From contig JAOUJM010000001.1 in assembly GCA_029883265.1 (NCBI GenBank), positions 10,511 through 74,510 of the forward strand: 64,000 bases of DNA. Reading direction: 5' to 3'. The translations under genes and the position numbers were made by a program. The DNA comes from Gammaproteobacteria bacterium (GTDB taxonomy: Bacteria; Pseudomonadota; Gammaproteobacteria; S012-40). Positions within the stretch are counted from its first letter, which is position 1, and each line of letters opens with the position of its first letter. This document shows positions 902 to 18,732 of this stretch, one piece after another. The notes beneath the pieces were generated by a model that saw only the letters and a program-made list of their open reading frames with translations, was not told where the DNA came from and searched no databases.

Positions 902-1108
902 TTAAAGCCTGACGCCGTTTGGACTTCGGTTTAGAAAACGAATATTAGGCGCTTTCCCAAAGTCCATACTTTTAACATTCCCAAGCTCATCAATGATTGA
1001 CGCCATATCCTTGTTATAAGATCCAAGGATTGTCGTTGTTTTTCCCGGCTCGGTCTGAAGAATTACCCCGGATGATGCCTGATGGTTTAGCGTTTTGTCT
1101 GGAACAAC
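902..1108 (-). pseudogene. Truncated orphan toxin module O15 (duplicate of the N-terminal part of module O14)
   Basis: Own translation: VVPDKTLNHQASSGVILQTEPGKTTTILGSYNKDMASIIDELGNVKSMDFG then diverges (KAPNIRFLNRSPNGVRL*). nt ~955-1108 nearly identical to ~1547-1699. Confidence 0.7.
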
Positions 1109-1303
1109 TTAATCGGTTGCACCCAAATACCAGATCATAAACTCATAGAACCCATCCCATTTTGCAGGGATTTCGCCATTCACAAAACGATCTCTAGTTG
1201 CTAGCTCAAAGTCCCAGACCCTGCCTGTAATCTTGTCATACAAATAGCAACCTTCTCCCTCTGCAGTAGTGAAGCATATATAGTTTTCTGGTACTTTCCA
1301 GAT
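1109..1303 (-). pseudogene. 3' fragment of an immunity-like gene (no start codon), fused directly behind the stop of module O14
   Basis: Own translation after the O14 stop, same frame: VIWKVPENYICFTTAEGEGCYLYDKITGRVWDFELATRDRFVNGEIPAKWDGFYEFMIWYLGATD*. No ATG/GTG/TTG start available. Confidence 0.5.
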
Positions 1304-1306
1304 GAC

Positions 1307-1699
1307 CTATACCCCAAATCCTGTCAGTTCCATTTTACCTGTTGATGTGTTTGGCCTGATCAAGACACCCAACCCTCGATTATCGATAACATCGAACCCC
1401 GGCTTAGTAGCCATGAGAATACTGTCACCTCTAGAGGTAGCAGAATTTAAGAATGGTACATTGACTTCGTTCCAAAATCCTTTTGGCCCCAGTGTTCTGA
1501 ACAACTCATCTGGCGCATTTAATACATTGAAGTTACCAGGCTTTGGACCAAAGTCCATACTTTTAACATTCCCAAGCTCATCAATGACTGACGCCATATC
1601 CTTGTTATAAGATCCAAGGATTGTCGTTGTTTTTCCCTGCTCGGTCTGAAGAATTACCCCGGATGATGCTTGATGGTTTAGCGTTTTGTTTGGAACTAC
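1307..1699 (-). CDS. Orphan toxin C-terminal module O14 (no own start; begins at VVPNK junction); family unknown, related to O9/O13
   Basis: ORF 1307..1597 extends in frame upstream to GTAGTTCCAAAC at 1699: VVPNKTLNHQASSGVILQTEQGKTTTILGSYNKDMASVIDELG...FWNEVNVPFLNSATSRGDSILMATKPG. Confidence 0.65.
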   Translation of the reverse strand, partial: VVPNKTLNHQASSGVILQTEQGKTTTILGSYNKDMASVIDELGNVKSMDFGPKPGNFNVLNAPDELFRTLGPKGFWNEVNVPFLNSATSRGDSILMATKPGFDVIDNRGLGVLIRPNTSTGKMELTGFGV

Positions 1700-1707
1700 C
1701 CACTAGT

Positions 1708-2172
1708 CTACTTTGACTCTCCCCAATTAAATCTCACATCAATCCAAGACTTACCTTCCAACACTGACAATAGCTCTAAATCACTAAACAAAGAGTTCAC
1801 GAATTTCATGAATTCCCTTAACTGTTGCTCAAATTCTCCGCTATAGCTAGAAAGACTAAAAGGGCTTTGCTGAGAAATAGTACCACGCTTCTGTACCCAT
1901 GAATCCAGACTAAAGTCTTTATCTGTCTTATCATCAATCACATAAATGACAATGTAGTCGCCCTTATCCCCGAATGCTGGATAGAATGTAAATTCCACAG
2001 AAACACCATTATCACCGCTTAGCAAATACTCGTAGCTATCTCCTGCTGGCCCCTTACTTGATACATGCTTAGTGTGTTTAAGCCTAAATCCAATACTAGT
2101 TAGACTGTCTAACATCACCAAGAATGATTCAACTTTTTTGGCTTTATCTTTTACTGGTGTGGAGTTTTTCAT
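1708..2172 (-). CDS. Putative immunity protein of module O13
   Basis: 154-aa ORF. Its ATG overlaps the toxin stop (TAATG), the position typical of toxin-immunity pairs. Confidence 0.6.
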   Translation of the reverse strand: MKNSTPVKDKAKKVESFLVMLDSLTSIGFRLKHTKHVSSKGPAGDSYEYLLSGDNGVSVEFTFYPAFGDKGDYIVIYVIDDKTDKDFSLDSWVQKRGTISQQSPFSLSSYSGEFEQQLREFMKFVNSLFSDLELLSVLEGKSWIDVRFNWGESK

Positions 2173-16267: not shown

Positions 16268-16792
16268 CTATTTAAAACCATAGATGGTTTTTATTCTATC
16301 CCATGCATCAAACCGTGTAGCCAGACTACCATTTTCTCCTAATAAAACCCTATTTTCATATATGGTTCCTAGTTCTGGTTTTCCTATGCTGTCTGCAAAC
16401 TTTTGTTCAGCTAGGAATGCTCTCGCCTCAAGATAAGACTTATTAGACATATTTTTCACACCGGAAATATCATCGAAAAAGTGTTGCCCTTCATGTGCAG
16501 TAATTGTAGCAGCTCGTTTTAACCCAGTATTTCCGGTATAAATTAGATCTTGGTTTAACTCAATTTGATTTGTACCAGGAAAATACCGACCATTAAGCCC
16601 ATCTAATTTCGAATAAACAATCTCAACTTTTCCATTTTGAATAGCAGTTGCCAATTTAACTGATCTAGCATCCCCAGTTTCCAATATACGGCTAATCATT
16701 TGAGGAGAAGGCGCTTGATTTCCGTTCGCTAACCTAACTCCATCACCCCCAAACATTACTTTACTTTCTAACTGAAGGTTGTCTGGAACAAC
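16268..16792 (-). CDS. Orphan toxin C-terminal module O2: HExxH zinc-metallopeptidase candidate
   Basis: ORF 16268..16756 extends in frame to VVPDNLQLESKV, preceded by an in-frame TAG. Motif ATITAHEGQHFFDD. Confidence 0.6.
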   Translation of the reverse strand, partial: VVPDNLQLESKVMFGGDGVRLANGNQAPSPQMISRILETGDARSVKLATAIQNGKVEIVYSKLDGLNGRYFPGTNQIELNQDLIYTGNTGLKRAATITAHEGQHFFDDISGVKNMSNKSYLEARAFLAEQKFADSIGKPELGTIYENRVLLGENGSLATRFDAWDRIKTIYGFK

Positions 16793-16814
16793 CTAATCCC
16801 AAACATCAGTCAAG

Positions 16815-17096
16815 CTAACAAACAGACTCTAGATCCTTGATTAAAACCATAACCTGATCCTGATTACATTCAACAAAGAAACTGTCGATAGTAGAAGTTG
16901 TTTGCAAAGTAATAGATTGCTTAGCTTTAAGCTTTTCTGCTAGTTCTTTTGTTACATCTTCACGATTAGAATTAGTTATATGTACCGAACACACATCCTT
17001 ACCATAAACAACCATAGCTTCGTAGGAATCTTTTAAAGACCACCATTCTCGACGATCTAAAACTCCAGCTGCCTGTTCTCTTATTAAATTAGCCAT
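16815..17096 (-). CDS. Putative immunity protein of module O1
   Basis: 93-aa ORF; ATG overlaps the O1 toxin stop. Confidence 0.6.
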   Translation of the reverse strand: MANLIREQAAGVLDRREWWSLKDSYEAMVVYGKDVCSVHITNSNREDVTKELAEKLKAKQSITLQTTSTIDSFFVECNQDQVMVLIKDLESVC

Positions 17097-17563
17097 CAGT
17101 CTACCCTAATATTATCTGTAGAGTTGAATATGCTGCGCTGCCCAGCACTATTCAAGATCAAACTTTGACTTTGTTGCTGCCTAAATATATCCAATACCAT
17201 ACGATCCCCGGGCCAGCCTGATGCATCTAGTTTAATGTCTGTCGTTCCGGGATGAGTATGACCAGACCACTTATAGCCTTTATCAGCCAAACCTTGTAAT
17301 TCAGATTTGGTTAATGGAACACCTCCAGCATTCCCTCTAAACACTAGGCGTTGACTACCATTAGTAAACAAAGCAAACTCATCACCTGTCTTTGCCGTAA
17401 GCGCTGCCAGATCAGTCACGCTTATTTGCTTCTTATGAAGAGTTGTACTTGATAATGTATCTGGTAATTGACCCAAAACCCGTTGTTGACGCTTTGACAA
17501 ATCGCCAAAGCCCCAAGCTATTTCGCTAGGAGAACTAGCTGAAATCGTCTTGTTTGGAACTAC
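17096..17563 (-). CDS. Orphan toxin C-terminal module O1, JAB/MPN-like HxH motif (paralog of O11)
   Basis: ORF 17096..17500 extends in frame to VVPNKTISASSSPSEIAWGFGDLSKRQQ.... Motifs DEFALFT ... WSGHTHPGTTDIKLDASGWPGD. Confidence 0.55.
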   Translation of the reverse strand, partial: VVPNKTISASSPSEIAWGFGDLSKRQQRVLGQLPDTLSSTTLHKKQISVTDLAALTAKTGDEFALFTNGSQRLVFRGNAGGVPLTKSELQGLADKGYKWSGHTHPGTTDIKLDASGWPGDRMVLDIFRQQQSQSLILNSAGQRSIFNSTDNIRVD

Positions 17564-17853
17564 ATACTAAATCCGCTTTTCCAATCACTTTTAGTAGTAG
17601 GATCCGACCTCATTTCTTCTAAGAAGAACTCACACGCTGAGCTTTCATCCTCAAAACACTCTTTGCCAGTCTGCAATCCTCTCTCACTATAATAAACACA
17701 CCACCGGCCATTTTCACAACGCAAGCACAACGCCTCGTCCTTTTGTTCCTCCTCCAATGAGTAAGAGCTAGGATTAAATTTCTCCTCACTCAACTTTCTT
17801 TGAAGATCATCTTTATTCATGCAATATCCCTCATCATTTTGTAACGCGCTCAA
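17560..17853 (-). CDS. Putative immunity protein of the displaced native TNT-like toxin (O0)
   Basis: 97-aa ORF. The likelier start is ATG at 17820, which has a GAGGGA Shine-Dalgarno 6 nt upstream. Its stop is the TAG inside GTAGTTCC of the next junction. Confidence 0.6.
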   Translation of the reverse strand: MSALQNDEGYCMNKDDLQRKLSEEKFNPSSYSLEEEQKDEALCLRCENGRWCVYYSERGLQTGKECFEDESSACEFFLEEMRSDPTTKSDWKSGFSM

Positions 17854-18732
17854 GATATTGGTTTGCTGGATTCAAGAGCTCCTTTACTGATTTTGGCAAC
17901 TCGTATTGGGTACCATATCCAGGCATATCAAAAGCAGGTGCAGCTGGGCCAATGCGTGTATCCGGAATTTCTTGGAGAACGCGATACACATTCAAGTTAC
18001 TCACATCTGTGCCGGGACGAAGGGATAATGTTTCTGGAGTTGTTCCTAAGGGGCTTGCGAATGTACCGCGTTCATTCCCGAGACGGCCTATTAGCTGTCC
18101 AGGTTGCAATGAGCCAATCTCATCAGCACCATAAACAAAACCTTTATTCTTCGGCCAATCCCAGAACACATTTTCTGCACCATACTTGCTGGTCAAATAT
18201 TCATTCCATTGAGCGCCTGAAACTGCTCCAGTCTTGTTTGGAACACGATCACCGCCTTTATATTTTAATATACCGCCAGCAATAAAACCATATGTTAAAC
18301 CACCCAATAGCTCTGGATTCTCCCTGTTCTGCCACAAGTTCCTCAGACTTTGGACCTTTCTATCTGAAAATTCGGTACTAGTAGGAAAACCCAGCTTATC
18401 TAACTTAAAGAAACTATTAAAATTTAAAGAGAGGTCATTAAACTCTTCCCAGATATTTTTTCCTATATCTAGCAAAACCTCTAAAGTCTCATTTGTCAAT
18501 CTGTCACCAAGATCTTTATGAGCATTTAGGGTTCCTTTACTGAATCTCAATGCGTAATCACCCACATCTCCGTTTTGTTTCTGCTGGTTACTCCGGCCCA
18601 AAACAACCCCATTAATCTGATCAAGTTGCTGCATTGCCTCTTCTAAATTTTGTTGACTCTCAGAAACCTCTCCAACCCCCTCCTCCTTACTATGTCCCGC
18701 CAACGTCAATGGTAAATCCACTTCCTGGCCAT
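17834..18732 (-). CDS. Displaced native 3' end of the giant toxin gene (O0): ~165-aa pre-toxin segment, VPNK junction (18233-18244) and TNT-like NAD+ glycohydrolase domain
   Basis: ORF 17834..18817. The first 28 codons are encoded by the IS66 left end. The next 3 (HGQ) span the IR tip and the 8-bp duplication, and native sequence resumes at EVDLPLTLAGHSKEEG. C-terminal GQLIGRLGNERGTFASPLGTTPETLSLRPGTDVSNLNVYRVLQEIPDTRIGPAAPAFDMPGYGTQYELPKSVKELL matches the TNT pattern (R-x-G...G-x-F-x-S-P-x-G-T...Y-x-V...G-x-x-A-P-x-F...G-x-G-x-Q-Y). Confidence 0.75.
18725..18732. repeat. 8-bp target-site duplication, left copy (CTGGCCAT)
   Basis: Identical octamer immediately outside both IRs (18725-18732 and 22840-22847). 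Confidence 0.85.

Follow-up and report, generated by a model that had tools for sequence, protein, structure and literature searches.

In polymorphic toxin systems, a standalone cassette takes the place of both the 3' tip of a toxin gene and the matching immunity gene (Zhang et al. 2012, PMC3482391). The closest published analogue of the locus described here is class 3 MafB of Neisseria, in which silent mafB-CT cassettes without an initiation codon begin with the peptide WDWVKN, and in which replacement was deduced by genome comparison (Jamet et al. 2015, PMC4287609). We analyzed a stretch of 64,000 nucleotides from a Gammaproteobacteria bacterium (GenBank assembly GCA_029883265.1, contig JAOUJM010000001.1, positions 10,511 to 74,510 of the forward strand; hereafter, the window), which carries a giant gene for a YD-repeat/LysM toxin and, on the same strand, start-less toxin/immunity cassettes that begin with a short motif, VP(N/D), encoded by the DNA core GTTCCARAC. 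A preliminary description, made from the letters of this DNA, had proposed that the motif is the crossover point for module exchange. Our analysis suggests that the motif is probably the in-frame hinge of a polymorphic toxin system, where a trunk joins exchangeable toxin/immunity cassettes via short-homology exchange.

The general architecture, i.e., a polymorphic toxin system with orphan cassettes, is already known. Both class 3 MafB and the window have a full-length gene and same-strand start-less cassettes, each with an immunity gene, which share little beyond a short boundary motif. The MafB trunk, however, consists of a signal peptide and DUF1020, which is absent from the precomputed Pfam list of the giant gene, and its motif is WDWVKN, whereas here a YD-repeat/LysM giant is combined with VP(N/D); compared with MafB, the window is also marked by immunity open reading frames (ORFs) that abut or overlap the motif, and by a DNA core that is invariant across very different GC contents. 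In CdiA, a short peptide, VENN (PT-VENN, PF04829), likewise divides the constant region from the polymorphic toxin, and orphan arrays lie downstream. VENN is part of a pre-toxin domain, and CdiA orphans usually retain a stretch of upstream trunk sequence, whereas in the window no pre-toxin domain was detected, no upstream trunk sequence is kept, and the trunk is not a two-partner-secretion filament. Koskiniemi et al. reportedly described, in 2014, orphan rhs-CT genes in, for example, Salmonella. Such Rhs systems resemble the window in having a trunk with a YD-repeat shell, polymorphic toxins at the C-terminus and orphan tips downstream, each with an immunity gene; their main gene recombines with an orphan, as is presumed for the window. 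In classical Rhs proteins, the toxin directly follows the DPxGL autoproteolysis motif and the orphans share hundreds of bases of core sequence, whereas here only 10-14 nucleotides are shared, and PxxxxDPxGL was not found before the tip in the giant protein. New features of the locus are the VP(N/D) motif encoded by GTTCCARAC, a shared homology cut down to some 10 bases, immunity stops that overlap the motif, and the nucleotide invariance over hosts of 41-53% GC. Polymorphic toxins swap their C-terminal tips, and the exchange point is usually long trunk homology; here it would be about 10 invariant bases that double as the code for a hinge, in a packing so tight that the stop of one gene lies in the hinge of the next.

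The sequence TGGAAC was found on the plus strand at all 17 positions listed in the preliminary description; one extra copy, at 17315, lies inside toxin T2 and marks no junction. When the 14-mer was searched with up to three mismatches, 23 matches were obtained against 8.1 expected, a number reached in 0 of 100 shuffles, and 16 of the 23 were sites already described. The core GTTCCARAC occurs in 16 copies in the 64-kb window, all of them direct repeats on the minus strand within 1097-18244 (expectation, 0.82 per window; 0 of 100 shuffles attained 16), and no copy was found in the other 46 kb. In an alignment of the 17 sites, GTTCCA carries 2 bits per position; the positions from -3 to +10 are highly informative, whereas those beyond -6 and +10 carry about 0 bits. 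In the junction of 14 nucleotides originally described, the three leading bases vary (GTA, GTT, TTT, ATT, GAT and CGT), and the invariant element is GTTCCA-RAC-A, which encodes V-P-(N/D). The seventeenth site, at 10501, retains only GTAGTTCCA; rather than being a sequence variant, this motif is interrupted by the inverted repeat of an IS66 transposon.

Which codon stands ahead of the core appears to depend on how the upstream ORF ends, its stop being TAG in G-TAG-TT and TGA in T-TGA-T. Covariation between the base before the core and the A or G after it was considered and rejected: in the window GTA always goes with AAC, but two metagenomic contigs (L031 and L038, described below) have GTA or TTA with GAC, so the A before the core is more readily accounted for as part of the TAG with which the upstream ORF ends. 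Within the motif, valine is encoded by GTT in 17 of 17 sites (locus usage, 0.41), proline by CCA in 17 of 17 (0.36), and asparagine or aspartate by the minor codons AAC or GAC in 16 of 16 (0.29 and 0.25, respectively). The joint probability of this invariance is about 6e-24 if codon choice is assumed to be independent. Because the synonymous positions never vary (50 of 50 invariant), the motif is conserved at the DNA level, and conservation acts on the DNA and not on the peptide alone. Three other roles were tried and rejected: a Chi-like or DNA-uptake sequence, since the 46 kb outside the arrays contain no copy of the motif; a stable hairpin, since its arms would have just 3-5 A/T-rich base pairs; and a target site of insertion sequences, since of three IS66 flanks just one falls in a motif and an IS110-family element sits inside the toxin fragment T17.

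Read in the GTT-CCA frame, all 15 orphan sites have an in-frame stop 0-6 codons upstream, and from the motif the frames stay open for 130-254 codons (68 in the truncated T17). No orphan frame has a start codon at the motif. Pfam toxin domains were found behind three motifs (TNT, LHH and NTP_transf_2). Directly after every toxin frame lies a small ORF of 44-237 aa, which is taken to be a putative immunity gene; most of these ORFs match no family, the only and weak matches being a sub-threshold Imm59 in I1 and, by Pfam, ankyrin repeats in the ORF borne by one IS66 element. The putative immunity ORFs end 0-20 nt ahead of the next core in every case. Five of them (ends 10506, 11593, 12536, 13541 and 17560) terminate at the TAG inside G-TAG-TTCC of the next motif, which bears out the in-motif stops originally proposed, and six (ends 2605, 3321, 4799, 14677, 15794 and 1109) stop at or overlap the codon preceding the core. 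The proposed list of abutting stops holds for these six positions and not for 16793, which is an in-frame stop only; the upstream immunity ORF there ends at 16815. Self-BLAST of the region showed that the modules are mutually dissimilar except for the IS66 copies and the pair T16/T17. The earlier suggestions that adjacent modules are unrelated outside the motif and that cassettes are delimited junction to junction thus stand, and the overlap of stop or TAG with the motif recurs in L031 and L038. At E <= 0.01, Pfam returned no PT-VENN or other pre-toxin family in the motif-bearing ORFs or in the C-terminal 1199 residues of the giant protein, and a literature search for VVPN with toxins yielded nothing relevant, in agreement with the claim that the motif differs from known pre-toxin motifs.

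The giant gene (precomputed Pfam matches: DUF6531, RHS_repeat, TEN_YD-shell, LysM and Phospholipase-like) has distant trunk homologues in Sphingomonas, Janthinobacterium, Hahella and others. In its present form, the main ORF (21847-41001, minus strand, 6384 aa) consists of the trunk fused to a lipase tip borne by IS66 element #2, and contains no VP[ND]. The present main gene lacks the motif because this element sits in it, a fact that the preliminary description had missed. We found that deletion of IS66 #2 together with one copy of its target duplication CTGGCCAT yields a single ORF of 6350 aa, which runs from the trunk through its cut-off end ('pre1') to RVPNK at site 18239 and on into a TNT toxin; the restored gene reads in frame across the excision (NGYGQ, directly followed by EVDLPLTLAGHSK), and the motif stands 137 codons ahead of its stop. 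The original main gene, so reconstructed, carried the motif at its trunk/toxin boundary. Site 18239 is accordingly the main gene's own trunk/toxin junction, whereas site 6455 belongs to a second trunk, now decapitated, whose junction it marks. In the giant protein the hinge lies about 600 residues past the repeat shell, behind the LysM domain and hydrophobic linker segments. A homologue search with 'pre1' found none. The locus has the marks of a polymorphic toxin system, with a multi-domain trunk that bears a variable tip (Phospholipase-like or TNT) and, in the window, L031 and L038, start-less cassettes that have their junction in common with a full-length gene. As a separate observation, the T1 ORF of gene callers (306-327 aa) begins inside the left inverted repeat of IS66 #2 (window 18733-18826), and the displaced TNT tip could be translated from this start provided by the insertion sequence.

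The same core was found in unrelated metagenomic bacteria (43-53% GC), where it both separates trunk from toxin in full-length genes and opens the orphans downstream. The T10 toxin family sits behind many different trunks and, like the T16 family, behind many other junctions elsewhere; in one member (P0003), VVPD stands ahead of the toxin. The contig of P0003, L031 (53% GC), contains a 3' fragment of a main gene. The beginning of this fragment resembles the post-LysM segment of the giant (IPQVTTTANAYNTYQPY vs IPNVVTNIHNNADTFKPY), and the gene carries TTAGTTCCAGACAC (LVPDT) 139 codons ahead of its stop. Three orphans follow, beginning with GTTGTTCCAGACAC, GTTGTTCCAAGCAC and CTAGTTCCAAACAC, the last of which has the TAG stop of the upstream ORF inside its motif. 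The putative immunity protein after the T10-like toxin in L031 is 38% identical to I10 of the window (E 2e-24), which indicates that the T10-I10 toxin and immunity genes travel as a pair. Contig L038 (P0022, 48% GC) has a trunk that is 71% identical to that of L031 at the nucleotide level up to GTTCCAGACAC and unrelated beyond; its main toxin differs from that of L031 and is a relative of T16, and its next orphan begins with GTAGTTCCAGACAC, with a putative immunity stop inside the motif. L040 contains one orphan with the same core. L044 (43% GC) encodes a classical Rhs protein in which the DPxGL core end is followed by a linker of about 165 residues, GTTGTTCCAAAT (VVPNS) and a T16-family toxin.

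The T16 family comprises 432 relatives, and most of the best 150 of these have other junctions. The motif was also considered as a general feature of the giant trunk family, which was rejected: it is absent from 23 GTDB loci with distant homologues of the giant trunk. Because relatives of T16 mostly have other junctions and these trunk-homologue loci lack the motif, it is tied neither to a toxin domain nor to a single trunk family and is a portable hinge. T16 itself differs from its family: the C-termini of its relatives are longer, its 3' end being about 25 codons short, and I16 is related to I6, unlike the immunity protein of 154-156 aa located after the T16-family toxins of L038 and L044. 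Scanning metagenomes with the L031/P0022 trunk alignment produced no match. An exact metagenome scan for GTWGTTCCAGACACAGCACC gave five loci, of which only L040 is a clear member; L041-L043 were set aside, being either chance matches or repeats without relation to the motif, and the phage-like L039 probably matches by chance. Look-ups of the immunity and IS66 proteins returned only identical copies of the same locus. VP[ND] encoded by GTTCCARAC may serve as a simple signature for silent toxin reserves that gene callers miss or mis-start. In addition, a GC-rich hairpin (GCCCGC-loop-GCGGGC) was noted ahead of two L031 orphans (2620-2660 and 3462-3500) and of the L040 orphan (reverse strand, about 75-125); the T-run of this hairpin in L031 and L040 merges into the left half of the motif (GCGGGCGTTTTGTTGTTCCA), and the L031 array ends with another such hairpin, which has no motif (5318-5345).

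Homology breaks at the motif in three independent comparisons, in support of the proposal that it is the point of module exchange. The first 152 nt of cassette 16 are duplicated in the T17 fragment (window 957-1108 vs 1548-1699, 97% identical); both copies begin with the first base of their motif although the immunity genes upstream are not the same, and the two motif versions differ (GTA..AAC in T16 vs GTT..GAC in T17). The trunk homology between L031 and L038 ends at the motif, and the restored main gene has only the motif in common with its orphans. The drop of identity exactly at the motif, one of the checks named for the proposal, was thus seen in both T16/T17 and L031/L038. These data suggest the following mechanism. 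A giant YD-repeat/LysM toxin, presumably located at the surface or secreted, has a constant trunk that ends in the motif and is followed by an exchangeable toxin domain and a putative immunity gene, and two arrays of promoter-less, start-less toxin/immunity cassettes, running motif to motif in the same orientation, lie downstream as presumably silent orphans. The motif is the only sequence common to the cassettes and the trunk, and homology-guided events would therefore have to resolve within it, whether by unequal crossing-over or deletion between direct copies, by gene conversion, or by integration of foreign cassettes anchored in trunk homology. Resolution within the motif would keep the reading frame and yield exact junction-to-junction cassettes, and selection for continued exchangeability would hold the DNA sequence constant beyond what the peptide needs. 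Since the bases to the left of GTTCCA carry the stop of the upstream gene, the crossover would lie at or to the right of GTTCCA. Judged from the sequences compared, recombination would happen inside the motif without a dedicated enzyme.

Several points weigh against exchange by short homology. No structural variant, recombinant or alternative arrangement was seen among the copies of the locus from four or five metagenome samples, which are 100% identical to one another. The motif's absence from the 23 GTDB loci mentioned above means that it is not universal in the trunk family. Homologous exchange alone leaves unexplained how each immunity gene first came to abut the motif, and a protein-level role of VP(N/D), e.g., as a processing site, could coexist with the DNA-level role. 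Furthermore, 9-14 bases are below the usual length for efficient RecA recombination. Because the shared homology is so short, a helper mechanism may exist; slippage, homology-facilitated illegitimate recombination and a dedicated recombinase are possible routes. The same shortness, together with exact cassette boundaries, immunity stops that overlap the site much as in integron cassettes, a core of 9-10 nt invariant across bacteria of 41-53% GC, and its form as a small imperfect palindrome, (T)TGTT-CCA-AACA(A), would also fit a core site of dedicated integron- or shufflon-like recombination, whereby a recombinase encoded elsewhere would excise circles and insert them at the trunk motif. Integron cassettes are likewise compact, promoter-less and uniformly oriented, with exact boundaries and ORF ends that run into the site; the site in the window, however, lies inside coding sequence and must preserve the frame, and spacers of 0-20 nt leave no room for attC. 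No integrase, attC hairpin or attI was found in the window (Pfam of neighbouring genes, and Rfam, which gave no match in 1-42000), and IS66 and IS110 transposases account for all the recombinase genes seen in the 64-kb window and in the short foreign contigs, with the IS110 element inserted in T17 and not in a motif. Shufflons (Rci/sfx) need inverted repeat copies, whereas all core copies here are direct repeats on one strand, which makes switching by inversion impossible, and ten conserved bases compare poorly with the 26-34 bp typical of tyrosine and serine recombinase sites. We hence regard such a dedicated system as rather improbable. Its more specific form is similarly doubtful; there, a dedicated cassette recombinase would recognise the 10-nt core and make the crossover in it, in an intragenic, frame-preserving integron-like system common to unrelated bacteria, and IS66 elements, with their repeat as a protein linker, would be a second, independent way of swapping tips.

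An explanation at the protein level, to which we attach little probability, is that the motif matters only as a peptide, VP(N/D) being a cleavage hinge whose DNA identity was inherited with spreading cassettes while exchange proceeds via other homology. Many known junction motifs end in asparagine (VENN, WDWVKN, ELYN and WVHN), in the T10 and T16 families the motif precedes the conserved toxin domain by 2-5 residues, and homologous cassettes (T10-I10 and T16) with the motif occur in different bacteria. Selection on the peptide, however, leaves unexplained that the synonymous positions, minor codons included, are invariant amid unrelated flanks; the cassettes have no other common homology that could guide exchange, and the homology breakpoints fall on the motif itself. 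The same invariance at synonymous sites would not be expected of a relic, and it is very improbable that the motif is merely a mark of origin in orphans that are expressed independently from internal starts as toxin-antitoxin-like pairs. Most orphan frames do contain an internal ATG, GTG or TTG 12-64 codons past the motif, and one report (PMC7043789) describes a Salmonella orphan rhs as a type II toxin-antitoxin module. The positions of these starts are unconserved, T5 and T14 have none that yields at least 60 aa, and promoter-like sites are rarer than in shuffled sequence (23 vs 44.5), the scan for promoters and terminators having shown no enrichment. Exchange by short homology within the motif is therefore the reading that we retain, and the locus offers a compact natural system for asking how short a homology can sustain programmed exchange of gene segments, and whether a dedicated enzyme takes part.

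In addition to the junction motif, two IS66-family transposons shape the locus (Pfam, TnpB_IS66 and DDE_Tnp_IS66). Both have tnpA-tnpB-tnpC and terminal inverted repeats that start with GTAAGCG (GTAAGCGTCC...; left repeats at 6847 and 18733 on the plus strand, right repeat of #2 at 22839 on the minus strand), as is typical of the family; the 8-bp target duplication is present in #2 and lacking in #1. IS66 #2 is 87% identical to #1 over 18733-20995, which spans the transposition genes (self-BLAST). What sets these copies apart from the family is their cargo: between tnpC and the right inverted repeat, each carries an unrelated toxin/putative immunity pair of 1.3-1.8 kb, whose toxin frame runs through the right repeat into the interrupted host toxin frame (VSVQNSAPGK in #2, VSVQNSAPRK in #1). 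Because the cargo frame reads through the repeat, the present lipase tip of the giant gene is transposon-borne. That both of the two insertions have the same orientation and frame would happen by chance with a probability of about 1/36. In L008, the lipase and ankyrin proteins of IS66 #2 have homologues in the tip of a giant toxin and in the product of the gene downstream of it, respectively, and T9, the toxin of IS66 #1, shows an E-S...GLFQ signature, read off the sequence, that resembles lytic transglycosylases. The cargo suggests a route absent from the literature searched, by which transposition would replace the active toxin tip in one step; the search found no paper on IS66 elements with toxin cargo read through the inverted repeat.

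At site 10501, GTAGTTCCA is directly followed by GTAAGCGTCC, the second part being the IS66 inverted repeat. A 33-nt match between T9 (10468-10500) and the giant gene (22808-22839) was considered as a second junction motif and rejected, as it is this inverted repeat. The flanks of IS66 #1 differ (CAGTGATA at 6839-6846 vs TGGAACTA at 10501-10508) and contain no target duplication. For this reason, IS66 #1 is best read as a chimera of two copies, in which recombination would have deleted what was left of cassette 9 along with a second toxin gene's trunk and fused two arrays; the second toxin gene is then best read as surviving only as the remnant 'pre10' and array B (T10-T17). Exact look-ups of TnpC found no record, the closest plasmid IS66 TnpC is 41% identical and uninformative on cargo, and a scan of viral contigs for the IS66 right repeat gave no match. 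Separately, contig L048 (Logan SRR7132771), which equals window 20840-22839, ends exactly at the outer base of the right repeat of IS66 #2; this could faintly hint at a second insertion context or at a presence/absence polymorphism in that sample. The IS66 element in L007 was examined as a second cargo element and rejected, as it is an ordinary 2.5-kb IS66 downstream of a homologue of the giant gene. In that contig (Duganella sp. Root336D2), IS66 and an extra solo inverted repeat occupy 13778-16365, about 1.4 kb downstream of the homologue, and IS66 elements may be recurrent neighbours of giant toxin loci.

Table 1. Features of the toxin locus in window coordinates (T, toxin; I, putative immunity ORF)
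Feature	Position	Strand	Details
Constant trunk, main polymorphic toxin	22840..41001	-	YD/Rhs-type repeats, LysM domain, Gly/Ala-rich hydrophobic linker
IS66-family transposon #2 (4107 bp)	18733..22839	+	tnpA 18817-19173, tnpB 19140-19523, tnpC 19554-21044
IS66 #2 cargo	ankyrin ORF 21095-21823; lipase-type toxin tip 21847-22839	opposite	Pfam ankyrin repeats
8-bp target-site duplication CTGGCCAT	right copy 22840..22847; left copy 18725-18732		flanks of IS66 #2
'pre1', last 161 codons of original trunk	18248..18732	-	cut off from trunk by IS66 #2
Cassette 1, presumed original active tip	17560..18247	-	motif CGTGTTCCAAACAA 18234-18247 (RVPNK); T1 17834-18247, TNT-domain NAD+ glycohydrolase (Pfam E 2e-20); I1 17560-17853
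Cassette 2	16815..17563	-	motif GTAGTTCCAAACAA 17550-17563; T2 17096-17563; I2 16815-17096; one codon separates upstream in-frame stop from motif
Cassette 3	15794..16792	-	motif GTTGTTCCAGACAA 16779-16792; T3 16268-16792; I3 15794-16264; in-frame stop directly adjoins motif
Cassette 4	14677..15793	-	motif TTTGTTCCAGACAA 15780-15793, adjoins TGA stop of I3; T4 15290-15793; small ORFs 15057-15293 and 14677-15075
Cassette 5	13541..14676	-	motif GTTGTTCCAAACAA 14663-14676; T5 14260-14676; I5 13541-14254
Cassette 6	12536..13544	-	motif GTAGTTCCAAACAA 13531-13544, contains TAG stop of I5; T6 12987-13544, LHH (HNH/EndoVII) nuclease toxin (Pfam LHH, E 1e-8); I6 12536-12985
Cassette 7	11593..12539	-	motif GTAGTTCCAAACAC 12526-12539, contains TAG stop of I6; T7 12024-12539, nucleotidyltransferase-fold toxin (Pfam NTP_transf_2, E 7e-5); I7 11593-12021
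Cassette 8	10506..11596	-	motif GTAGTTCCAAACAA 11583-11596, contains TAG stop of I7; T8 11165-11596; I8 10506-11168
Half motif GTAGTTCCA, ninth cassette	10501..10509	-	cut by IS66 #1; still provides TAG stop of I8
IS66-family transposon #1 (3654 bp)	6847..10500	+	tnpA 6931-7290, tnpB 7278-7634, tnpC 7647-9185
IS66 #1 cargo	I9 9194-9748; T9 9745-10500	opposite	
Second-trunk remnant 'pre10' (6464-6846) + cassette 10	5676..6846	-	cassette 10: motif TTTGTTCCAGACAA 6450-6463 (FVPDN); T10 6041-6463; I10 5676-6059
Cassette 11	4799..5661	-	motif TTTGTTCCAAACAA 5648-5661; T11 5188-5661; I11 4799-5191
Cassette 12	4071..4799	-	motif GTAGTTCCAAACAA 4786-4799; T12 4362-4799; I12 4071-4361; I11 ends TAG-TAG, second TAG inside this motif
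Cassette 13	3321..4069	-	motif ATTGTTCCAGACAG 4056-4069; T13 3542-4069; I13 3321-3542
Cassette 14	2605..3320	-	motif GTTGTTCCAGACAG 3307-3320, adjoins TAG stop of I13; T14 2880-3320; I14 2605-2880
Cassette 15	1708..2606	-	motif GATGTTCCAAACAA 2593-2606; T15 2172-2606; I15 1708-2172; TGA stop of I14 made from T+GA of unusual GAT codon
Cassette 16	1109..1699	-	motif GTAGTTCCAAACAA 1686-1699; T16 1307-1699; short ORF I16 1109-1306
Cassette 17 fragment	957..1108	-	motif GTTGTTCCAGACAA 1095-1108 + first 138 nt of T16 copy; cut by IS110-family element
IS110-family element (DEDD transposase)	1..956	-	terminates array B; extends past window edge

Contig L027 continues the locus past the edge of the window, and a gene there (L027 7473-8486) matches DEDD_Tnp_IS110 and Transposase_20. 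The IS110-family element (L027 7216-8694) lies inside the T17 fragment with about 250 nt of non-coding sequence ahead of its transposase gene, and metagenome contigs break at this place. At the other end of the locus, no genes of T6SS, two-partner secretion or PAAR were seen in passing in window 41186-64000. The giant gene is located directly downstream of a flagellar gene cluster on the same strand in this segment, which includes FliP, FliO, FliN, FlgE-like, FlgD, FliI, FliH, FliF, FlgI, FlgA and FlgG-like proteins, a sigma factor and TPR proteins, and three uncharacterised ORFs (42370-46089; one with DUF6973) lie between the giant gene and the cluster.

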